Source of the DNA: Acidobacteriota bacterium
Lineage (GTDB): Bacteria; Acidobacteriota; Aminicenantia; Aminicenantales; Saccharicenantaceae
NCBI GenBank assembly: GCA_028749205.1
Contig: JAQULR010000002.1
Coordinates: forward strand, 59,644 to 123,643
Direction: 5' to 3'
DNA: 64,000 nt
Shown here piece by piece: positions 1,507-60,601 of this stretch (positions are counted from its first letter, which is position 1; each line of letters opens with the position of its first letter). A model generated the notes under the pieces. The model was given only the letters and a program-made list of their open reading frames with translations, did no database searches and was not told the DNA's origin. Both the position numbers and the translations under genes were made by a program.

Positions 1507-1545
1507 GCCGAATTATTCAGAACAGTTTTTTATGATTTTCCTCAA

Positions 1546-1617
1546 GAATAATCTATCCTGTTATAAAGATAGTAGGTTAAGCTGGTATTAAAGAATTATC
1601 CAGGGCTGCTTGATATC
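1546..1617 (-). repeat. intergenic repeat family, composite/partial copy (inverted 3' module GAATAATCTATC + AATTATCCAGGGCTGCTTGATATC)
   Basis: Matches revcomp of GATAGATTATTC and the AATAATCCAGG-CTGCTTTAT modules of the family consensus. Confidence 0.45.
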
Positions 1618-7780: not shown

Positions 7781-7829
7781 GTCATAATCTCCTAAAAATT
7801 AAATTAAAAAGTTTATTAAAAAATCTTAG

Positions 7830-7900
7830 CCTGGATTATTTACAAATAATCCAGGCCAGCCTGCTTTATTCCGGACCTGATAGATTATTCCTGGGGAAAT
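7830..7900 (+). repeat. intergenic repeat family, full copy (CCTGGATTATTT-AC-AAATAATCCAGG + CTGCTTTATTCC + GATAGATTATTC + GGGGAAAT)
   Basis: Perfect 12-nt-arm palindrome 7830-7855 then conserved downstream modules; 50 nt upstream of acnB start. Confidence 0.7.
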
Positions 7901-7938
7901 CATGAACAAAAACCTATCTAAGAAAATCATCTCATGTC

Positions 7939-7999
7939 CCGATTTCCGCTTCGATTTTCGCTTTCGTATCTCTGATCTTACCATGTCTCGATTTTCTTA
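7939..7999 (+). promoter_or_regulatory. cluster of direct repeats CGATTT(T/C)CG in acnB-icd divergent region
   Basis: CCGATTTCCGCTTCGATTTTCGCTTTCG ... CTCGATTTTCTTATC; three to four spaced copies of the same 9-10-mer. Confidence 0.35.
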
Positions 8000-8205
8000 T
8001 CTTATATAGTTCCAATCCGATAAAAAAGCAAGCTGGTTTAATATCTTATGGATTCCTCTTTTTTTTGTCAAAAGAAACTGACCGGGCTTTTCTCCTCAAA
8101 AATTCTTTCGAATATCTTTATCCATCCTTTCCCAGATGTAGATTCACCTAATTACTTATAAATACTCTATATTTAGAGGTATATCCCTTAAGGAGAAAAA
8201 ACAAT

Positions 8206-10517: not shown

Positions 10518-10558
10518 ACAAGCAAAAAAATAATTAAAATTCCAGCGGGTAGAGATAA

Positions 10559-10598
10559 AAGAAAACAGGGCCGTTTTAAGCGGCTCTGTTTTCTTTAA
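10559..10598 (+). terminator. rho-independent terminator after mdh
   Basis: AAGAAAACAG / CTGTTTTCTT 10-bp perfect stem around GGCCGTTTTAAGCGGCT loop, followed by a T run. Confidence 0.6.
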
Positions 10599-11941: not shown

Positions 11942-12813
11942 GTATCTTGGTTAAAGCCAAGACTAGAATCCTGGTTCAAGGGATAACAGGAAAGGAAGCC
12001 ACTTTTCATACTCAGAGAATGCAAGAATATGGGACCAGAGTCGTGGCTGGGGTAACCCCAGGGAAAGGCGGCCAGAGTCATCTGGGTTTACCAGTCTTCA
12101 ACACTGTCGAGCAAGCCAGAAGCGCTGAGGCTCCTGAGGTTTCGGTAATTTTCGTCCCGCCCCGGGCTGGGGCCGATGCTATTATGGAGGCAGCCGACGC
12201 TGGTATCAAACTGATTGTCTGTATTACTGAAGGAATTCCAGTCATTGATATGCTCAGGGCAAAAGCCTTTCTAAAAAAGACCAATTCCAAACTTATCGGA
12301 CCAAATACCCCTGGGATAATTTCCCCAGGCAAAAGCAAGGTAGGAATAATGCCTGGACACATTCATATTCCAGGCCCTGTTGGCCTGATTTCCCGCTCTG
12401 GCACCCTGACTTATGAAGCTGTTCATCAACTGACCAAGCTGGGAGTCGGTCAATCAACTGCCGTAGGTATCGGGGGGGATTCCATCTGTGGCCTTAAATT
12501 CGCCGAATTACTGGAGATGTTTAGGGAAGACCTCCAGACGAAAGCCCTAATTTTGATTGGAGAAATAGGTGGAACTGCAGAAGAAGAAGCTGCTGGCTAC
12601 CTGAAACAAATCTCTTACCCTAAACCAATTCTGGCTTATGTGGCTGGGGTAACCGCTCCACCGGGCAAGCGGCTCGGACATGCCGGAGCCATAATCGAAG
12701 GAAGCCGGGGGACCGCTCAGGATAAAACAAATTGCCTCAAGGAGGCCGGGGTAAGAATCATCTCAAATCCGGCCCGAATCGGTCAGGAAACAAAAGCTAT
12801 TCTTATAAACTAA
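11938..12813 (+). CDS. sucD: succinyl-CoA synthetase alpha subunit
   Basis: ILVQGITGKEATFHT CoA-binding N-terminus, SRSGTLTYE motif; 291 aa. Confidence 0.9.
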   Translation: MSILVKAKTRILVQGITGKEATFHTQRMQEYGTRVVAGVTPGKGGQSHLGLPVFNTVEQARSAEAPEVSVIFVPPRAGADAIMEAADAGIKLIVCITEGIPVIDMLRAKAFLKKTNSKLIGPNTPGIISPGKSKVGIMPGHIHIPGPVGLISRSGTLTYEAVHQLTKLGVGQSTAVGIGGDSICGLKFAELLEMFREDLQTKALILIGEIGGTAEEEAAGYLKQISYPKPILAYVAGVTAPPGKRLGHAGAIIEGSRGTAQDKTNCLKEAGVRIISNPARIGQETKAILIN

Positions 12814-14089: not shown

Positions 14090-14758
14090 ATGAAAAAAGC
14101 TCTTCTAATCATATTGGCATTCTCCCTGGCTATTATGAGTATTAATTGTGCCAGTTGGAGCAAAACGGCCAAGGGAGCAACGGCTGGGGCTGCTGGCGGG
14201 GCCGTAGTTGGAGCCGTAGTGGGTAAGGTTGCCGGTGATACCTTAATTGGTGCCATTACCGGAGCAGCAATTGGCGGGGCCGCAGGTGCTTATATCGGCC
14301 GTCAGATGGACAAGCAGGCTGAAGAAATGAGACGAGACCTCGAAGGAGCCAAAATTGACAGAATTGGCGAGGGTATTAAAATTACTTTTGATTCGGGACT
14401 ACTATTTGACGTCGATAAATACGAACTTCGCCCTGAAAGTAAAGAAAACCTGATTAAGTTGGCGACCATCTTAAATAAGTACCCTGACACTAACATCATA
14501 ATTGAAGGCCATACTGATTCAACAGGTTCCCATGCCTATAACATGACTTTGTCAGAAAACAGGGCTAAAGCTGTGGCTGCCTATCTAGCCACGCAAAACG
14601 TCCAATCATCTAGATTTACTGTGGTGGGCTATGGGCCTGACCAGCCCATTGCTTCCAATGATACTCCTGAAGGCCGGCAATTAAACCGCCGCGTCGATAT
14701 TGGTATAATTGCCAACGAAAAACTTAAAAAAGCCGCTTTAGAGCAAACTGGGAAATAA
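14090..14758 (+). CDS. OmpA-family lipoprotein with glycine-zipper N-domain
   Basis: Lipobox MSINC; Gly/Ala zipper (GAAGGAVVGAVVG); C-terminal OmpA-like peptidoglycan-binding domain (TDSTGSHAYNMTLSENRA). Confidence 0.8.
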   Translation: MKKALLIILAFSLAIMSINCASWSKTAKGATAGAAGGAVVGAVVGKVAGDTLIGAITGAAIGGAAGAYIGRQMDKQAEEMRRDLEGAKIDRIGEGIKITFDSGLLFDVDKYELRPESKENLIKLATILNKYPDTNIIIEGHTDSTGSHAYNMTLSENRAKAVAAYLATQNVQSSRFTVVGYGPDQPIASNDTPEGRQLNRRVDIGIIANEKLKKAALEQTGK

Positions 14759-14801
14759 AATTTGATTAGTTCTTGATAAGAAAGCTTAAGGCTGTTAGTA
14801 G

Positions 14802-14869
14802 CCCGGATTAAGATGAAATAATCCAGGTCAGTTGGCATTATTATCTTGAAGATAGATTAAGTTAATAGG
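14802..14869 (+). repeat. intergenic repeat family copy between convergent gene ends
   Basis: CCCGGATTAAG-ATGA-AATAATCCAGG ... GATAGATTAAG; followed by an (AT)n-like tract at 14905-14932. Confidence 0.6.
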
Positions 14870-14939
14870 CAAGCCAAACTTAAAGCTGGCCAGCAATTCA
14901 AAGCTGTAATATATATTTATATATATATTTCCTCTGTTG

Positions 14940-16631: not shown

Positions 16632-16667
16632 GTCCTTCTTCCTTTCGTATAAAACTCTTTTGGCTTA

Positions 16668-16710
16668 CCTGGACAAGTCATAAATAATCCAGGTAAACTT
16701 GATTTATTTC
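16668..16710 (+). repeat. intergenic repeat family copy upstream of M14 peptidase gene
   Basis: CCTGGACAAGTCATAAATAATCCAGG + TAAACTTGATTTATTTC. Confidence 0.6.
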
Positions 16711-19381: not shown

Positions 19382-19432
19382 TTTTAAGTCCTTTTTTTGA
19401 ATTTAAAACTTCTCTTGATCATTGGCTATTAT

Positions 19433-19503
19433 CCTGGATTACGCAGAAATAATCCAGATCAATCTGCTTTATTCCCAACTTGATAGATTATTCTCGGGGA
19501 AAA
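19433..19503 (+). repeat. intergenic repeat family, full copy (~81% identical to the 7830 copy over 70 nt, no gaps)
   Basis: CCTGGATTACGCAGAAATAATCCAGA + CTGCTTTATTCC + TGATAGATTATTC + GGGGAAAA; 52 nt upstream of the C69 peptidase start. Confidence 0.7.
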
Positions 19504-19625
19504 TAAGCTGATTGAAAATCTCGAGACAGGTTCAGTTTTGTGAACGAACCGTATATTATAATCATCCCCCTAAGGAATAAAGATATTTTTAGCTGCTGAT
19601 ATGATTCTTGAAATAAGTACTAAGA

Positions 19626-26804: not shown

Positions 26805-26840
26805 TCTCCACTTTGTTAATTAACTTGCCTCTTTTCCTTA

Positions 26841-26865
26841 CCCGATAGATTACTCTCGAGAAATC
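26841..26865 (+). repeat. intergenic repeat family, 3' module only
   Basis: CCCGATAGATTACTCTCGAGAAATC matches the TGATAGATTATTCTCGGGGAAA part; upstream of ileS. Confidence 0.4.
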
Positions 26866-34132: not shown

Positions 34133-34175
34133 TTCTGTTATGATTCAACCAGGAATATTCAAAAACACTAATGAT

Positions 34176-34232
34176 CCTAGATTACTCCCAAATAATCCAG
34201 GTTAACCTGCGTTATCAATGCAGGCGATTAAG
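34176..34232 (+). repeat. intergenic repeat family copy upstream of MFS gene
   Basis: CCTAGATTACTCCCAAATAATCCAGG + TTAACCTGCGTTATCAATGCAGG (own hairpin) + CGATTAAG. Confidence 0.6.
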
Positions 34233-36319: not shown

Positions 36320-36344
36320 TTCAACAAGAAATCACATCTATTAT

Positions 36345-36390
36345 CCAGAATTATTCAAAAATAATCCAGAGTATCTTTCGTTTTTTGGGT
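36345..36390 (+). repeat. intergenic repeat family copy upstream of the Ca-binding secreted protein gene
   Basis: CCAGAATTATTCAAAAATAATCCAGAG; additional GAGATTATTC half-sites at 36431 and 36461. Confidence 0.55.
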
Positions 36391-36666
36391 CAATTGGACT
36401 GAATGTTTATCTGGTAACATTAATTAGCCGAGATTATTCATAAAACTTTCCCTACTCTGAGATTATTATTAATGGTTGAGAAAAAAATGGTAACATCTTT
36501 TATTAGAAAATAATCATAGAATTTTCGGGAAAAATTATGATAATTCTAAGCCTGCCTGAAATCCTGCCATAAAAAACGTAAGTTGATTTATAAAATCCAT
36601 CCAGATAGATTTATATCGTCGAGTGGGGCAAATATTGGTATAATTAACCACCGTGAGGCAGTTTAG

Positions 36667-43906: not shown

Positions 43907-43952
43907 GATAACCTATCCTTTTAAATTTAATTATTTTTCTAAGTTTTATTAT

Positions 43953-44018
43953 CCCGAATTAATCACCAATAATCCAGTTAAACCTGCTTTATTCCTCTTC
44001 ACCATAAAGAAATCAGGG
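43953..44018 (+). repeat. intergenic repeat family copy upstream of the GS-family gene
   Basis: CCCGAATTAATCACCAATAATCCAGT + TAAACCTGCTTTATTCC + ...GAAATCAGGGAC. Confidence 0.6.
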
Positions 44019-44113
44019 ACAAGAACCGATTATATAAAATCATCTCAGACTCCATATTTTTTTAACGATGATGGAAAATATCATGACCGGTTTAGTTTTA
44101 TTTATAATTGAGT

Positions 44114-45463
44114 TTAATATAAAAGAAAAGGCTTCCGAAGTTTTTCGAATTCTTTAAGACCTGATTCAAGGCTTTTAACAATCTCTTCCGGGGAAAGACC
44201 AGACTGGAGGGCCTGTCTGATTTCAGAATTACCCATAATTTTGTCGAAATATTCAGGATGAAAATTAAAGTCATCCGGATACCTATCCAAAACTGTTCTA
44301 ATTATCCAGAGGGTAGTTAAAAAAGGAGCAAAAGAATCTCGGTCGGTTATATGCAGCTGGCAGCCGCCACACAACTGACCCTGAAATTTGGAAAAGCTTG
44401 GCGTAAACCAGGCTTCTCGGAAGATGACACCGGGCAAGCCAAGCTGGTTGAGTTTCTCAGAGAGCTCATGGCCATCTATCCAGGGAGCGCCAAAAAGTTC
44501 AAAAGGCCTGGTAGTTCCTCGGCCTTCTGAGATATTAGTTCCTTCAAGATAGACCTGCCCGGGATAAACTGTGGCTGTCTCCAGAGTTGGCATATTCGGT
44601 GAAGGCATCACCCAGGGCAATCCTGTCTGGTCAAACCACATCTCTCTCTTCCATCCTTCTACTGGGATGACCGTTAAACCAACCTTTTTTCCCAAAAACC
44701 TATCGTTAAATAAATTGGCCAGCTCGCCAGCCGTCATTCCATGCCGAAGTGGGATAGGATAAAGGCCAACAAAAGAGCTGAAGTCTGGATATTTCAGTAT
44801 GGCTCCTTCTAAAAATAGCCCGTTAATTGGATTAGGCCGGTCCAGCACTATGAAATCAATCCCCAGCTCAGCACAGGCTTCCATGGCGTAAGCCATGGTG
44901 GCGATATAAGTATAAACCCTGGTTCCCACATCTTGAATATCAAAAATCATCACCTCAATTTCTTCTATCATATTCTTTTCTGGAACCTTACCAGTTATCT
45001 GGGTATCAAAAGATCTCATGTAGTCATCAATATTCTTCAACATTCCTGGGTGTGGTCTTAAGGACTGTCCATAAAGGCTGAAAACTGGAAGCTGATATTT
45101 ATCATCAAAATAGAAAGGCACATATTCTCCAGCCTGAGCATTTCCTCTAATCCCGTGTTCAGGTCCATAGAGAGCCACTAGATCGACTTCAGGGGTAACC
45201 TGAAGCAGGCTGGTGGTTGATTTCAATTGTGAATCAACTCCTGAAGGATTGGTAATTAAGCCAACCCTCTTGCCACCGACCAAGTCCAGGTGTTTTTCTA
45301 TAAATACTTCTACGCCTGGTCTTACCTCGGCCTCTCTGGAGACTGGTGATTCCTCCAGCTTTCCTTTTTGGCAGGAGGTCAGAAAAAAACATCCTAAAAT
45401 TATTCCCAGCAAAACTATAAATACCCGCAAGAAAGTTTTTCTCAAAGATAAATCACCAGGCAT
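44114..45463 (-). CDS. DUF1343 family lipoprotein (NamZ-like exo-beta-N-acetylmuramidase family)
   Basis: Lipobox LTSC; RVGLITNPSGVD ... LYGPEHGIRG motif characteristic of DUF1343/NamZ. Confidence 0.6.
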   Translation of the reverse strand: MPGDLSLRKTFLRVFIVLLGIILGCFFLTSCQKGKLEESPVSREAEVRPGVEVFIEKHLDLVGGKRVGLITNPSGVDSQLKSTTSLLQVTPEVDLVALYGPEHGIRGNAQAGEYVPFYFDDKYQLPVFSLYGQSLRPHPGMLKNIDDYMRSFDTQITGKVPEKNMIEEIEVMIFDIQDVGTRVYTYIATMAYAMEACAELGIDFIVLDRPNPINGLFLEGAILKYPDFSSFVGLYPIPLRHGMTAGELANLFNDRFLGKKVGLTVIPVEGWKREMWFDQTGLPWVMPSPNMPTLETATVYPGQVYLEGTNISEGRGTTRPFELFGAPWIDGHELSEKLNQLGLPGVIFREAWFTPSFSKFQGQLCGGCQLHITDRDSFAPFLTTLWIIRTVLDRYPDDFNFHPEYFDKIMGNSEIRQALQSGLSPEEIVKSLESGLKEFEKLRKPFLLY

Positions 45464-45496
45464 TCGATCCTCCCTCTAATTAACCGGTAATATTAG

Positions 45497-45520
45497 CCTG
45501 GGATTATTTATATAATCAAT
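45497..45520 (+). repeat. intergenic repeat family, left-arm partial copy upstream of NamZ-like gene
   Basis: CCTGGGATTATTTATATAATC. Confidence 0.35.
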
Positions 45521-45686
45521 GATATCTAAAGGCAAGAGAAAGATGTTGTTTTAGAATAGATTACCAATTTCCATCTAATATATTACCTAGATAGCTATTA
45601 TCCTTCTTTTACCATGGCTTGATATTCAGGGCGGGCTAATAATAAAATCATAATTGACCTCAATAAAATAGGAAGAGAGGTGCTCT

Positions 45687-48362: not shown

Positions 48363-48416
48363 GTTCCAGAAGCTGAAATAAGAACAATTTATCAGATTGG
48401 CCATCAGGCAGTTTGA

Positions 48417-48448
48417 CCTGGATTATTTATGAGTATGAGTAATCTAGA
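48417..48448 (+). repeat. intergenic repeat family, palindrome-only variant
   Basis: CCTGGATTATTT-ATGAGTATGAGT-AATCTAGA (right arm = revcomp of the CTAGATTACT variant); second CCAGGATTATAT at 48486. Confidence 0.5.
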
Positions 48449-48539: not shown

Positions 48540-49232
48540 ATGGCTGGAAAGTTTACCCTTGAATTACTCCAGGAATCCTTACCGTCACTACTCAAAGGTG
48601 AAAAACCCGGCCTGAGCACCCAGCTGAAGTTAAGCCCAATGCCTCCCCCTTCAATTTTAACTTTTCGGGATGTTTGGCCTTCATGCTTAAGAGCTGCTGT
48701 TCTTTTGTTACTTTACTCAAGGCATCGAGCACCCTATCTGGTATTTATCCGCAGGAGCAGCCAGGGCAATCACCACCAAAATCAAATATCCTTCCCAGGA
48801 GGACAGATAAACGAGCCCGAATCAGTTGAAGAAGCGGCTATAAGAGAAACTCAAGAAGAAATTGGCCTTAATATCGACAATATCTTGGTAGCCGGTGAGC
48901 TTACACCCCTGTATGTTCAAACCAGCAATTACTGTATTTTCCCAGTGGTCGCAATTACCAGAAGAAAACCGGTCTTTATTCCAAATGCAGTCGAGGTAGC
49001 TGAAGTTATAGAAGTTCCTCTGGCACATCTGATGGAAAGACAAAACTTAAAACAGGAAGTCTGGACACTTCGAGGCCAGGAGATGCTGGTGCCTTACTAT
49101 CAATACGGAGAACATAAAATCTGGGGAGCCACTGCTATGATTCTGGCTGAATTTCTGGAAATATTGACTCGGATTATCCATAGCCCAATAGATTATTCTC
49201 AGGGAAAATCTAGGAAGCTTAGGAAAACTTAG
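48540..49232 (+). CDS. Nudix hydrolase, CoA pyrophosphatase-like
   Basis: Nudix box GGQINEPESVEEAAIRETQEEIGL; upstream FPGG/SRH pattern as in NudL-type CoA pyrophosphatases. Confidence 0.75.
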   Translation: MAGKFTLELLQESLPSLLKGEKPGLSTQLKLSPMPPPSILTFRDVWPSCLRAAVLLLLYSRHRAPYLVFIRRSSQGNHHQNQISFPGGQINEPESVEEAAIRETQEEIGLNIDNILVAGELTPLYVQTSNYCIFPVVAITRRKPVFIPNAVEVAEVIEVPLAHLMERQNLKQEVWTLRGQEMLVPYYQYGEHKIWGATAMILAEFLEILTRIIHSPIDYSQGKSRKLRKT

Positions 49233-52619: not shown

Positions 52620-52910
52620 ATAAAAATAGTTGTTAGACCTGCATTATTCATAAAACTTAACAAGTCTTGAGATTTCGAATCATCATATGTAGGGAGATTT
52701 GGACATGATACGATCTTCCTATGCATCACAAAGTCCAGGGATTTAGCTTAGGAATGAATGGTAAATTTTGATAATTTTTCGGTGTGGGGTTCTGCTTACT
52801 GTATAAGAAGCAGATAGTACACTTTAGCCTGTAGAGGCTCCGACTAAATTGGCCAGTATGCTAAATTTTCATCGAGAATGATCTATCGAGCCTGGGATAA
52901 AGTAGGTTTA

Positions 52911-52936
52911 TCTGGATTATTTATAAATACTCTAGG
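52911..52936 (+). repeat. intergenic repeat family, palindrome-only variant between the two TBDR genes
   Basis: TCTGGATTATTT-AT-AAATACTCTAGG; the ATAAATACTCTA 12-mer recurs at 8150. Confidence 0.5.
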
Positions 52937-53103
52937 TGATATAAGTTTTTGTCTTTATATATTTCTTAAGCCTCCTTGATGATTGCCCCAAATCCACTTT
53001 TCAGATGCAGAATCCAGGATTGCCATGTTAATTTGACAACTTCTTTGGCCACTTTGTTACAAAAATAAGACTCTAAACAGAATTCTTTTCTTTTTCATTC
53101 GCC

Positions 53104-56262: not shown

Positions 56263-56858
56263 TTGCTTAGTTCCTCCTTTTTTTAGGATGCCCTCAACCT
56301 GGAGGAGTTTTAATCCTCCTGCCGATAACTTTAATTAAAACTATCTTAGCCAACAACTCATTCTTTCTCCTTTTTGCTTAGTCTCACACTTTTACCCTTT
56401 TTAGGATAAGCATATCTCTAACTATAAAAACTTGTCAAGAAAAATTATTTCTCTTTGGATCATCGCATCCACCATATAGTCGGGGCATATAAACTCCAAA
56501 AAATAAAAAACTCCCTTTCTTCGCGAGGATTGACATCTTTTGGAAAATCAAAATTTTATGGACTGAAATAAAGCCGCTAAATTAAGCTTGGTTATTCATA
56601 AATAATCCTCCAACAATCCAAGTGGGCAACAATCTGTTTCAGACGTTGTAACGAATTCTGATATTTTTAATCGTTAAAATTATCAAACTTGAAGCCCTGA
56701 CAATTTTAATCTCTGGGCAGGTTAAAAGCGAATTTTCGGCCCAAGCTAACACCGGTAAATTGCTTCTATTGTAAAAGGGAGAAGCAAGCACAGAAAGCTT
56801 ATAAAGATCTTCCTTTCATCCTGGGCAAAAATATAGAACCCCTTCCTCTCTGGGTGAA

Positions 56859-56944
56859 TGCCGGAGGAGGGAGTCGAACCCACACCCGAAATGAATCGGA
56901 CTGGATTTTGAGTCCAGCGCGTCTGCCTATTCCGCCACTCCGGC
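56859..56944 (-). tRNA. tRNA-Leu (anticodon CAA)
   Basis: 86-nt cloverleaf: acceptor GCCGGAG/CTCCGGC, anticodon stem CTGGA/TCCAG with loop CTCAAAA, long variable arm (CCGA...TCGG), TTCGACT T-loop; CCA not encoded. Confidence 0.85.
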
Positions 56945-57253
56945 AAACAAAAGGCTAATAAACTATAAATAAATCGTCAGACTTTTTCAAGATTGCCCGC
57001 AGGGGATTTAAGCAGTTAATTCTATTAGATGATCTCTTTTTAGCAAGCATCGTATTTTCAGAAAATGCCTTTTATTCTAACTCCAGCGGGGGCAGATGAC
57101 CAAGAGGCAGGGAATTGGCCTGCTTATGCCTCTACCATTGAATATAATCAGACCTGGATGCCTTCCAAAGGCCGGAGAGAGATATAATTCCTAAGGTTAA
57201 TGAATTTGCTCCCGTTCATTGCCATTATCCTCCCTCTCTGCTATATATCTGTT

Positions 57254-57916: not shown

Positions 57917-59593
57917 TCAGATTCTTCTCATTGAATCAAAGTAAAATAAGTTAAGGTTTCGGCCGGCTTTAGTCAGCTTTTCTGTTAACTCTTTAGTTTT
58001 TTCCCCAACCTCTGATTGAAGATTAGCCAAGGTTTCCTTATAGGCTTCCAGTTGTTGCTTATTTTTTTCCAACCATTCTTTCTGCCATTCCTTCATTTCT
58101 TGATAATAATTCCTGGCGACCTCCTTGGTTTCTTCTGTAAACTTTTCCACTCTAAGCCAGCCTCTTCTTTCTTCTTCTGCTACTTCTACTTCAACCTTCA
58201 GCTTCTTTTTATCTCTGATTATGTCCAGAGAGAGCCTTTCTCCTTTTTTCTTTTTCTGAATCAAGTCAGTTAGATCTTCTATAGTTTCTACCCGTTTTCC
58301 ATCAGCCGATACAATCACATCGCCCACCTTCAGTCCAGCTTTTTCGGCTGGACTCCCAGGATTAATTCTGGAAATCAACAGTCCCCGACCGTCAAGAACC
58401 CCAAAATACCTGGAAAGCTCTGGGTTGAGCTGCTCCAGATAAACTCCGATAAATCTGTACTGTTCAACTACATCTCCGAATTTAAATCTCTCAGCTTCAG
58501 TAAACCTGGGTAATTCTGGCATGGGGGGTAATGCCGGCATCCGGCGGAATAAATCTGGAAATCTCAATTCCAGCTCTCGTCGGGCTTCTTCTTCTGGGAC
58601 TGCCCCCAGCTTTATTTTAATGTTCTGAATCTGGCCTTGTCTTTCTATGGTCAGATTTATTGTGGTGCCTGGCTGGCGATTTCTAATTTCAGAAACTAAT
58701 TGATCAGAGGATCGGATGTCTTCACCGTCTATTTTAAGTATTATGTCGCCTATTTTTAAATTAACCAGTTCAGCCGGGCTTTTATCTTCAACAAAGGTAA
58801 TAACCACCCGGCCATCCCTGTCTTCGGCTATGGAGACACCCAGCCAACCACGTTCCACGCGACCTTTGGTCTTGATTTCCTGGAAGACATGCTTTACCAG
58901 TTCTACCGGCATTGCCATAGCCATGCCGGCGGCCGGAGCTTCAGCTTGACTCAAAACATAGCCGGCAGCAGTAGCTTCCCTGTCTCTGAAACGGAAAACT
59001 ATCGGCCTGTCTTCTAAATATACTCCACGCAACAGACCAACCAGCCGGCCCTTTTCATCAAGAATCGGTGCACCGCTCATCCCTGGCGTAACCCAGAGAT
59101 TCAGCCGCAAACGATCTTTAGCCACAGCACTCACTATTCCCTGAGTCACTGTTATCCCGGCATCAGAAGCCAAGCCAAGAGCACAAATCCAGGATCCAGG
59201 ACTCAAATCCTTAGCCGAGCCGCTACTAATAGCTGGAAGTTTTCCGCCCTTAAACTGAAGGATAGCTATCCTGGTTTCAGGATCAAAACCCAGAAAATCT
59301 GCTTGGTACTGATTACCACCACTATCTATCACCACAAGTTTCTCATCTCTGGGAGATATCAGAGCCGTAGTAGCTATATAACCTTCTTTATCTATAACTA
59401 CACCAGTAGCTACTCTTTTGAATCCGTTTCTAACTTCAACTCTGACCACCGACGGAGAGGCTTTCTTGACAACTTCAGTAGCATCACGATCAGCTGCTAA
59501 AATTGAACCCGGATTGGCCAGACCAAATAATAATGCACAGATTAATATCAGGTAAGTTAATCCTAACCTGAAAATCTTAATCTTGTCTTTCAT
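57917..59593 (-). CDS. HtrA/DegP-like trypsin-fold protein with two PDZ domains, catalytic His absent (probably non-proteolytic)
   Basis: Signal/anchor; trypsin-like domain with GMSGAP Ser motif and Asp, but no His anywhere in the ~170-aa protease domain; two PDZ-like segments; K/E-rich coiled-coil C-terminus. Confidence 0.7.
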   Translation of the reverse strand: MKDKIKIFRLGLTYLILICALLFGLANPGSILAADRDATEVVKKASPSVVRVEVRNGFKRVATGVVIDKEGYIATTALISPRDEKLVVIDSGGNQYQADFLGFDPETRIAILQFKGGKLPAISSGSAKDLSPGSWICALGLASDAGITVTQGIVSAVAKDRLRLNLWVTPGMSGAPILDEKGRLVGLLRGVYLEDRPIVFRFRDREATAAGYVLSQAEAPAAGMAMAMPVELVKHVFQEIKTKGRVERGWLGVSIAEDRDGRVVITFVEDKSPAELVNLKIGDIILKIDGEDIRSSDQLVSEIRNRQPGTTINLTIERQGQIQNIKIKLGAVPEEEARRELELRFPDLFRRMPALPPMPELPRFTEAERFKFGDVVEQYRFIGVYLEQLNPELSRYFGVLDGRGLLISRINPGSPAEKAGLKVGDVIVSADGKRVETIEDLTDLIQKKKKGERLSLDIIRDKKKLKVEVEVAEEERRGWLRVEKFTEETKEVARNYYQEMKEWQKEWLEKNKQQLEAYKETLANLQSEVGEKTKELTEKLTKAGRNLNLFYFDSMRRI

Positions 59594-59604
59594 TGCTAAC
59601 CTCC

Positions 59605-59979
59605 TCAGTATCTAACCTGTTGGACCCAATTATCAGATACCTGCTCCAGGATAAAAACTGTCTGAATTTCATCATTTGACCGGCGCATTTCCTGTCTTAA
59701 GTCTAAGGGCTCAACCAGATGAATCGCCTGGTCTTGAGAAGCCTCTTGAGCCATTTCAATCAAGGAGGACTCTTCCAGAGAACTCGGCTTTCTGGCAGAA
59801 GGAGAAAAAATTATTAACCCGATAATAATCAAAGTTGTCGCTCCTGCTAAACTGAATTCTAATTTCCGCAGCTTTACTCTCTTTTCTCTATTCCTCTTTA
59901 ATCTGGTCAGAACCGACTGTTCAAAGTCTGGCGGGGCTACGACTTGATTGAGCTGGCTGAGATATTTTTGGTCATCCAT
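59605..59979 (-). CDS. putative single-pass anti-sigma factor
   Basis: 124 aa, one TM helix (LAGATTLIIIGLIIF), immediately downstream of an ECF sigma gene. Confidence 0.45.
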   Translation of the reverse strand: MDDQKYLSQLNQVVAPPDFEQSVLTRLKRNREKRVKLRKLEFSLAGATTLIIIGLIIFSPSARKPSSLEESSLIEMAQEASQDQAIHLVEPLDLRQEMRRSNDEIQTVFILEQVSDNWVQQVRY

Positions 59980-59992
59980 CTAAGCTCTCCAC

Positions 59993-60601
59993 TTAATATA
60001 AGTCAAGTTTTTCCTCTTCCGTTTCATTTTCAGTTCCCTTACCTCGATTTTTTATCTGTTTTCCCTCCTCGAGCCTGAGTCTTAGATATTCTCTTCCTCG
60101 GCTAATTCTGGCCTTGACAGTTCCAACCGGCAATTTCAACAGCTCAGCTATCTCTTCCTGAGAAAAGCCTTCTACATCTTTCAGGATAACCGGAATCCGG
60201 TATCGGACATGAAGCTTACTTAGAGCTATCCTGATATTTCGCATCAGGCCCGGGTCGACACCGTCCTTAGAATAGCTGCCAGAGGCATATTCGTTGTTTA
60301 TTTCTTCCAAGGGAACTGTGGCTCTCCTTCTAATTTTTTTCTTCTCAGTCTTAGCTAAATTAGCAGCTATGGAATATATCCAGGCAGAAACCGGAGCAAT
60401 TGGCCGGTATTTTTTGGCCTTGAAATAAACCCGGCAAAAAGTCTCCTGAGCCAGGTCAATTGCTACTTGGTAATCGCCTGTTGCTTGATAAAGAAAATTG
60501 ACTATCCGGTCTTTATATAAGGTCATAAGCTGGCAGAAGGCGGCTTCATCCCCTCTTTGTACTTTCTCCATGAGTGCCTGCTCATCCATCTTCTTATCCA
60601 T
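59993..60601 (-). CDS. RNA polymerase ECF-type sigma-70 factor
   Basis: Sigma70 region 2 and region 4 (ILKDVEGFSQEEIAELLKLPVGTVKARISRG); start uncertain (ORF open to 60691). Confidence 0.8.
   Translation of the reverse strand: MDKKMDEQALMEKVQRGDEAAFCQLMTLYKDRIVNFLYQATGDYQVAIDLAQETFCRVYFKAKKYRPIAPVSAWIYSIAANLAKTEKKKIRRRATVPLEEINNEYASGSYSKDGVDPGLMRNIRIALSKLHVRYRIPVILKDVEGFSQEEIAELLKLPVGTVKARISRGREYLRLRLEEGKQIKNRGKGTENETEEEKLDLY

Follow-up and report, generated by a model that had tools for sequence, protein, structure and literature searches.

Is the 26-nucleotide (nt) palindrome that recurs in front of start codons along one stretch of an Aminicenantes genome a regulatory site, or is it part of a mobile repeat? 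The question is raised by positions 34,176 to 34,232 of a 64,000-nt sequence from an Acidobacteriota bacterium (assembly GCA_028749205.1, contig JAQULR010000002.1, positions 59,644 to 123,643), the whole of which is hereafter referred to as the window. The original prediction, made from the letters of this sequence, had left two options standing, a terminator or insulator of the repetitive extragenic palindromic (REP) kind and a site embedded in promoters. In the analysis reported here the palindrome proved to be a real and non-random repeat, as had been claimed, although the description was incomplete, since these nucleotides make up no more than the ~28 nt at the left end of a modular, non-coding repeat whose full-length copies measure 130-310 nt. 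The palindrome is probably the left terminus of a non-autonomous dispersed repeat that resembles MITEs (transposable elements of the miniature inverted-repeat type) and belongs to one Saccharicenans-related lineage.

The abundance of the repeat was established in several ways. Allowing at most one mismatch, the core AAATAATCCAG has 17 matches in the window, compared with 2.9 +/- 1.6 in shuffled sequences, and repeat finding returned a 7-member family of 45 nt that includes positions 34171-34215. From long copies, separate profiles were then built for the left and the right part of the repeat. The left-end profile recovered 11 copies in the window at E<0.01, and a 12th, degenerate copy close to the gene for NamZ (45495-45522) was recognised by eye. 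All 12 copies are intergenic, with eight on the plus strand (7827, 14799, 16666, 19430, 34175, 36343, 43950 and 45495) and four on the minus strand (1606, 48447, 52938 and 56608). Copies reduced to the left end are common (34175, 16666, 14799, 36343 and 48447). Two exact matches to AAATAATCCAG located inside genes (28269 and 30156) were discarded as chance occurrences, flanking similarity being absent.

Based on two alignments of long copies, one of eight copies and one of six, the element can be described as an assemblage of modules built around a basic 13-nt unit, ACCTGSWTTATTC (consensus ACCTG[G/C][A/T]TTATTC), of which the palindrome represents two inverted copies. Next to an AT-rich flank, the left end comprises, in this order, an outer arm ACCTGGATTATTC, a loop of 2-8 nt, an inner arm AAATAATCCAGGT and the segment ACCTGCTTTATTC, with the unit reading forward in the outer arm, inverted in the inner arm and forward again in the last segment. 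Module B, (ACC)TGATAGATTATTCTCGGGGAAAAT, contains a variant of the same unit (ACCTG-ATA-GATTATTC), and an internal inverted repeat, GGGACAYGAACCGATTT ... ATCATGTCCCGATTTTC (GAAAAT..GGGACAYGA / TCATGTCCCGATTTTC), encloses between 0 and 170 variable nt. Module C, TTGAAAATCTCGAGACATGTTCAGTTTTAT, is followed at the far right end by GAATAATGCAGGT, which is the 13-nt unit inverted, and RNAalifold pairs ACCTGCTTTATTC with GAATAATGCAGGT in six long copies. That similarity extends past the palindrome is illustrated by window positions 52943-52637, which align with the metagenomic locus L035 over 308 nt, and by positions 7826-8001, which align with locus L052 over 176 nt. Isolated fragments of module B also occur in the window, at 26832 and 49174.

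Several features expected of a MITE are present in this architecture. The two ends form terminal inverted repeats, the left sequence ACCTGGATTATTCACAAA and the reverse-complemented right sequence ACCTGCATTATTCATAAA agreeing at ~16/19 consensus positions, and the terminal consensus ACCTGSATTATTCAYAAA has 11 matches against 0.23 expected, including a perfect one at 52637-52654. The element is small and devoid of coding capacity, with stop-free stretches of at most 50 amino acids (aa) and no conserved open reading frame (ORF) among the long copies, the small ORFs differing from one copy to another. Many dispersed copies are found at unrelated loci, 12 of them within 64 kb and others elsewhere.

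Two minor observations concern parts of the element. At two metagenomic copies (L052 4380-4405 and L035 1455-1480), the outer arm and loop read TTATCCACA or TTATTCACA and thereby match the DnaA-box consensus (TTATNCACA) perfectly; a role of the loop as a DnaA box was rejected, as TTATTCACA/TTATCCACA is not conserved in the window copies and is probably a coincidence. In two copies (window 7902-8009 and L052 1920-2327), module B ends in a G-rich tail (GGGGAAATC / GAGGAAAAG) that lies at Shine-Dalgarno distance from an ATG, which opens a 35-aa ORF inside the element in the window and a 135-aa gene in L052. As judged from these sequences, the element may feed expression from its inner side as well.

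The distribution of the repeat among genomes was examined next to its anatomy. An exact-pattern scan of a one-genome-per-species collection, outside which the source genome and its element-bearing relatives evidently fall, returned 10 singleton matches in unrelated phyla, a number of chance order (estimate ~4). True copies, in which the palindrome is accompanied by downstream modules, were found in metagenomes at loci L016, L035, L045 and L050, all from one sample, and at L038, L046 and L052. These copy-bearing contigs have no genes in common with the window, and in L016, L035, L045/L064, L050 and L052 the copies (66-83% identity) adjoin unrelated genes. A scan of viral contigs gave two loci with a single match each, one being the contig of L047, whose match lacks the palindrome. 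In run SRR28875812, two element-bearing Aminicenantes populations co-occur, the window species (L003) and the species represented by L045/L064. Within the genome of the window itself, a further 18 kb (L060 and L061) contained one right-end fragment and one palindrome, the latter situated 28 nt upstream of the gene for a bactofilin. No paper on inverted repeats of this sort in Aminicenantes was found in the literature.

Syntenic loci of relatives were collected through homologues of the C45/AAT-family peptidase (L053, L054, L055, L057, L058 and L059; 74-76% identity) and through the M28 peptidase encoded beside the L045 copy (L065 and L066, 76-80% identity; L064, 99%). In about 145 kb from eight loci of Saccharicenans-like relatives (L053-L055, L057-L059, L065 and L066), the profiles detected no copy. 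L064, which derives from the same organism as L045, carries the expected copy together with a right-end fragment, and the sequence available for L056, an 89%-identical relative, does not cover the spacer. The orthologous spacers of the relatives are element-free and mostly shorter: the M14/OmpA spacer measures 4 nt in L054 and L055 versus 181 nt in the window, the acnB/icd spacer 186 nt in L057 versus 499 nt in the window, and the M28 peptidase spacer 128-141 nt in the relatives versus 409 nt. This is the presence/absence pattern of a MITE, seen at inter-species distance only. A restriction to one lineage combined with different neighbour genes in each genome argues for a mobile or dispersed repeat rather than an ancestral operator.

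The orientation of the copies had been taken as a property of the chromosome, all full copies of AAATAATCCAG being thought to read on the plus strand. This was wrong, the split being 8 copies on the plus strand to 4 on the minus strand; the exact core is found on the minus strand at 48418-48428 and 52912-52922, and degenerate forms occur there around 1586 and 56596. In 9 of the 12 window copies, the palindromic end is turned towards a start codon situated 25-92 nt away. Because two minus-strand copies, 1606 and 48447, face plus-strand genes (def at 70 nt and a NUDIX gene at 92 nt), orientation follows the adjacent gene and not the chromosome, and the apparent single-strand orientation reflects only a local run of minus-strand genes. 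A link between orientation and replication was likewise refuted by the 8:4 split and by the GC skew, which tracks gene strand across the window and shows no replichore switch.

The positional bias, on the other hand, was confirmed. Distances to the minus-strand starts of acnB, the peptidase earlier called C69 (a C45/AAT-family enzyme), the M14 peptidase, the MFS transporter, the calcium-binding protein (a 615-aa EF-hand-like product), the glutamine-synthetase-like gene and NamZ are about as first described (Table 1), and the copy near 14802 (14799 here) does lie between convergent gene ends. When the position and orientation of each copy were randomised within the limits of its spacer, on average 2.3 copies had their palindromic end within 52 nt of the start codon faced, compared with 7 observed (P=0.002); with the limit set at 92 nt, the figures were 3.7 expected and 9 observed (P=0.0009). 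Outside the window, 6 of 10 copies displayed the same geometry at 22-45 nt, as read from flanks and ORF starts. Among the minus-strand genes of the window that have an upstream spacer of at least 60 nt, half have an element end 25-51 nt upstream of their start codon.

With a gap of only 22-52 nt between arm and ATG, the promoter of these genes overlaps the element or lies within or beyond it. The junctions were read outward from the terminal arm for a -10-like hexamer, defined by at least 4/6 identities to TATAAT, with A2 and T6 required and a start within 0-3 nt. Such a hexamer abuts the arm at 11 of 17 gene-facing ends, including TATAAT (L060), GATAAT (three ends), TAGAAT, TAAAAT and TAATAT. 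The background amounts to 16% of all intergenic positions and to 17% of positions 20-55 nt upstream of element-free genes, against which the enrichment has a P of about 1e-5 and 2e-5, respectively. Among the five left ends without a gene start in front of them, none passed the test (Fisher P=0.011), although two of them have similar AT-rich words. The TGGATT word of the inner arm is located 17-18 nt upstream of the (T/G)A(T/A)AAT-like junction hexamer. A generic sigma-70 promoter scan gave no consistent match at the copies, and the sigma-54, extracytoplasmic function (ECF) and Bacteroidetes-type consensus sequences did not fit the aligned copies by eye. The element end may supply promoters or sit inside them, as these signals suggest. 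The promoter-embedded site of the original prediction thus remains plausible in its location and in the hexamer at the arm, while no evidence was obtained for a conserved operator regulon.

Canonical promoters were noticed elsewhere in these genomes. A TTGAAA-17-TATAGT motif precedes the tRNA-Leu(CAA) gene (window 56858-56945, minus strand; motif region to ~57000), and the TTGACA-17-TGT-TAGATT promoter of a H+-PPase gene is kept in L064 (~12030-12070) and L066 (~14240-14280), in spacers that are otherwise unalignable. Both indicate that the organism uses canonical sigma-70 signals. The extended -10 word of the H+-PPase promoter is also that of module B.

A tentative scenario can be drawn from these observations. 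The repeated 13-nt units would be recognised by a protein that binds DNA, the simplest candidate being a transposase whose gene lies elsewhere in the genome, and this protein would have driven the spread of the element through the AT-rich intergenic DNA of one Saccharicenans-related lineage. Copies might then have been inserted preferentially, or retained, where their terminus fell 22-52 nt upstream of a start codon, and there the terminus would complete or replace a sigma-70-type promoter of the adjacent gene.

Several findings weigh against the interpretation of the repeat as a MITE whose terminus contributes to promoters. Target-site duplications are not detectable, the mean longest word shared by cognate flanks being 4.6 nt versus 4.2 nt for non-cognate ones in a comparison of AT-rich, low-complexity flanks. 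Among the window ORFs scanned with Pfam, no transposase or parent insertion sequence (IS) domain was found. The absence of the element from relatives is inter-species (~74-80% amino-acid identity), with spacers too diverged for clean empty sites. The copies of one genome differ by 15-35%, which leaves no room for a recent burst. The proposed -35 word, TGGATT, fits TTGACA at only 3/6 positions, and the -10-like flank words at the two ends are mutually inverted and could stem from a target preference or form part of the element itself. Finally, the inner arm is near-invariant (9 changes) and the outer arm is not (28), which hints at a binding-site constraint in situ instead of neutral decay, a contrast inflated by the finding of copies through the core and reversed in copy 45495.

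This last point leads to the alternative that survives best, in which a dimeric regulator of the host would bind CTGGATTATTT-N5-AATAATCCAG over the -35 and spacer region of a large regulon, only the site being spread by the repeat. The location of the palindrome 25-52 nt upstream of starts, with a -10-like hexamer directly downstream, would suit such a regulator, as would an almost invariant inner half-site next to a varying partner arm and loop and the occurrence of the 13-nt unit 4-5 times per element, reminiscent of arrays of protein-binding sites. However, none of the sister genomes examined has the site in front of the corresponding genes, the orthologues of AAT, M14, acnB and the M28 neighbour lacking an upstream copy (L053-L059, L065 and L066), and the operator of a global regulator envisaged by the original prediction finds no support for this reason. 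Some copies have no gene start in front of them (14799, the left end of 52938, 56608, and L035 1465), and the inner arm is equally intact in them, so that promoter use does not explain its conservation. The adjacent genes are, moreover, functionally unrelated, and no candidate regulator was identified. An operator of this kind is therefore considered unlikely. A related possibility is that the host has turned the element into a portable cassette of promoter and operator, its left end supplying a -35/-10 pair and a single protein, perhaps a domesticated transposase, binding the palindrome and the 13-nt units. This is a long shot, which, if true, would mean that dozens to hundreds of unrelated genes of this Aminicenantes lineage are wired into one repeat-borne regulon, the near-invariant inner half-site amid 15-35% divergence being the footprint of binding.

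A second alternative relates to the mode of transposition. The repeat could be a REP/REPIN or a palindrome-associated transposable element (PATE), whose transposition would proceed through single-stranded DNA, with an HUH (Y1) transposase (RAYT or the TnpA of IS200/IS605) recognising a subterminal hairpin. With these elements it shares short palindromes able to form hairpins, a dispersed intergenic distribution and the lack of an obvious target duplication; a short T/A-rich word (TTA, TAT or CTA) before CCTGG of the outer arm and the strong conservation of the arm of one strand only could be read in the same way. Its termini, however, are inverted copies of one unit, unlike IS200/IS605-type ends, and the 8:4 orientation gives no sign of a replication-strand bias. 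REPs carry a GTAG-type head, which is not present in this stem, and typically lie at gene 3' ends; here, the stem CCTGGATTATT is AT-rich rather than GC-rich, one copy in 12 lies between convergent gene ends, and nine of them are turned towards a start codon. No RAYT or TnpA occurs among the window ORFs scanned. Movement of this kind is accordingly rated as quite unlikely. Of the REP-like option formulated at the outset, the general form is supported, that of a mobile repeat with inverted ends and unrelated neighbours that is absent from orthologous spacers, whereas the details do not, the stem being AT-rich, the copies mostly upstream of genes and only 1/12 terminator-like.

A function at the RNA level was also considered, either as a hairpin in 5' untranslated or intercistronic regions (stabiliser, processing site, terminator or insulator) or as a small RNA starting from module B. 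The hairpin is predicted to be stable, with a delta-G between -5 and -17 kcal/mol where shuffled sequences give about -1 to -2, and among asymmetric copies the reverse-strand hairpin, on the sense strand of the downstream gene, is the more stable one in 10/12. Over 17 copies of the palindrome, 152 of 187 Watson-Crick pairs are kept with 0 compensatory double changes, and the RNAalifold covariation term of the whole element is +3.1 kcal/mol, a penalty. Mismatches comprise 17 C.A and 4 G.U; the strand asymmetry was dropped as RNA evidence, because 7/11 sites of the T/G-rich variable arm give C.A by transition (64% expected, 73% observed). Rfam searches at the gathering threshold and at E<=1 returned only tRNA-Leu and chance matches, and an intrinsic terminator scan singled out the 7827 copy only (1/12), with its hairpin and T-run. 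Thus, although module B offers an extended -10 word (TGATAGATT), behind which come a long inverted repeat and a tail rich in T, and a canonical promoter lies upstream of the palindrome in L060, the lack of compensatory pairs and of an Rfam family, the covariation penalty, a wobble asymmetry predicted by base composition, a T-run in a single copy and the occurrence of both orientations relative to flanking genes make an RNA-level role very unlikely.

If the repeat is a MITE-like element, as favoured here, its closest functional parallel is plausibly found in the Correia elements (CREE/NEMIS) of Neisseria, with which it shares a size of 100-300 nt, a non-coding sequence bounded by inverted repeats and many intergenic copies, mostly just upstream of genes. 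Correia and other prokaryotic MITEs carry sigma-70-like promoters at sites immediately upstream of genes, and in the Correia elements the termini give rise to promoters of the sigma-70 type at one end or both (PMC2649163, PMC10969869), the mechanism inferred for the positional bias of the Aminicenantes repeat. The two elements are, however, unrelated in sequence: an extra inverted terminal unit, which gives an unusual left end of three to four units, and internal units are specific to the present one, the TA duplication of Correia elements is not seen, the integration host factor (IHF) consensus WATCAANNNNTTR has 2 matches in the window and 0 inside copies, and the host belongs to the Aminicenantes/Acidobacteriota. 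The junction itself recalls IS-end hybrid promoters, MITEAba12 and QMITE1, in which an outward -35-like word in the terminus is combined with a -10 at the junction (PMC10969869; PMC6382973; PMC5896051). These have a parent IS and/or experimental promoter data, whereas the Aminicenantes repeat is known here from its sequence.

Similarities extend to the ERIC/IRU and bacterial interspersed mosaic elements (BIMEs) of enterobacteria, which are strictly intergenic, modular and found in both orientations (reviewed in PMC2229807 and PMC3184786). As in these families, size variants arise by internal insertion or deletion between conserved inverted segments. ERIC is a single imperfect palindrome of ~127 nt, and BIMEs are arrays of GC-rich REPs usually located downstream of genes. 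The present repeat is unrelated to both in sequence and differs in its AT-rich stems and its bias to gene starts.

If this assignment is right, ~19% of the intergenic DNA of the window (about 1.3 of 6.9 kb, the intergenic share being 10.9%) would be repeat-derived, and Correia-like mobile promoters would exist in an uncultured phylum. No new mechanism or kind of regulatory site is implied, the value lying in correct annotation and in an example of promoter rewiring driven by a repeat. The repeat also bears on promoter prediction, operon calls and the assembly of metagenome-assembled genomes (MAGs) of Aminicenantes, as such repeats break contigs.

The individual copies and fragments are listed in Table 1, in which genes were mapped from the ORF list and Pfam scans of the window ORFs.

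Table 1. Copies of the repeat and derived fragments in the window, with their composition and gene context.
Feature	Position	Strand	Profile E-value	Composition	Context
Short left-end-only copy (locus of the original prediction)	34175..34216	+	6.8e-09	Outer arm CCTAGATTA, 5-nt loop, inner arm AAATAATCCAGG, third unit AACCTGCGTTATC	43 nt upstream of MFS start (34132, minus strand)
Degenerate extra unit	34148..34165	+		ACCAGGAATATTCAAAAA, 3 mismatches to terminal-unit consensus	Between palindrome and MFS start codon
Long copy	7827..8038	+	Left 7e-23, right 5e-07	Perfect 12+12 palindrome, CTGCTTTATTCC unit, module B (TGATAGATTATTC..GGGGAAAT), internal inverted repeats, degenerate right end	Divergent acnB/icd spacer; outer arm 49 nt from acnB ATG
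Full-length copy, ~303 nt	52636..52938	-		Left palindrome 52910-52938; right terminal unit 52637-52654, exact terminal consensus	Right end 28 nt upstream of TonB-dependent receptor start (52607)
Copy with internal deletion	19430..19551	+		Left end, module B, right module C (TTGAAAATCTCGAGACAGGTTCAGTTTTGTGAA); internal inverted-repeat segment deleted	51 nt upstream of C45/AAT-family peptidase gene; other neighbour, EF-G stop codon
Copy with both ends	43950..44113	+		Left and right modules	46 nt upstream of glutamine-synthetase-like gene; right end abuts NamZ stop codon
Short left-end copy	16666..16710	+			36 nt upstream of M14 peptidase start (16631)
Short copy	14799..14860	+			Between convergent OmpA-like and M14 gene ends; orthologous spacer 4 nt in two sister genomes
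Short left-end copy	36343..36374	+			Divergent spacer; 25 nt upstream of gene for 615-aa EF-hand-like protein
Degenerate right-end fragment	36427..36495	-	Right 1.1	Terminal-unit match 36427-36444	Spacer of the 36343 copy
Degenerate palindrome	45495..45522	+		CCTGGGATTATTT/ATATAATCAATG; decayed arm is the inner one	33 nt upstream of NamZ start
Longer-loop copy	48381..48447	-			Palindromic end faces plus-strand NUDIX start, 92 nt off
Degenerate copy	1535..1606	-	8e-07	Left end and module B	Palindromic end faces plus-strand peptide deformylase (def) start, 70 nt
Degenerate copy	56560..56608	-	0.0018		tRNA-Leu / second TonB-dependent receptor gene; palindromic end not facing a gene start
Module-B-only fragment	26832..26863	+		GATAGATTACTCTCGAGAAATC	About 45 nt upstream of ileS
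Module-B-only fragment	49174..49213	+		ATAGATTATTCTCAGGGAAAAT	Inside 3' end of NUDIX ORF, last ~20 codons

At window positions 44110-44116, the terminal TTAATAT word of the 43950 copy overlaps the stop codon of NamZ, indicating that the AT-rich flank at that end is native gene sequence lying outside the element. Both module-B-only fragments (26832-26863 and 49174-49213) read GATAGATTAYTCTC..GAAA and lack a palindrome, and the C-terminus of the NUDIX protein may be encoded by repeat-derived sequence from the second of them.

The window has a GC content of 43.6%, and its closest protein relatives are annotated as Candidatus Saccharicenans or Aminicenantes (OP8). Across 21 kb it is 100% identical to contig JAQVFQ010000002.1 of the MAG GCA_033348515.1, and window coordinates past ~55.4 kb map to another GenBank contig. 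The MAG contig contains a scaffold gap of 100 N (L060 2350-2449), which in the window is occupied by 694 nt of real sequence (59477-60170) comprising the end of an HtrA gene, an ORF of 124 aa and a portion of an ECF sigma gene. With this gap filled and the contigs joined, the window represents a more complete assembly of the same organism.

Two further palindromes were noted in the window. The sucC gene is preceded by a spacer containing a 39-nt near-perfect palindrome (10558-10596; 87% self-complementary) that has no relation to the repeat family; its sole Rfam match, to a microRNA model far below threshold, is attributed to chance. An A/T-only palindrome, atatatatttatatatatat (14908-14929), immediately adjoins the 14799 copy on the right, in the spacer where the OmpA-like and M14 genes converge.

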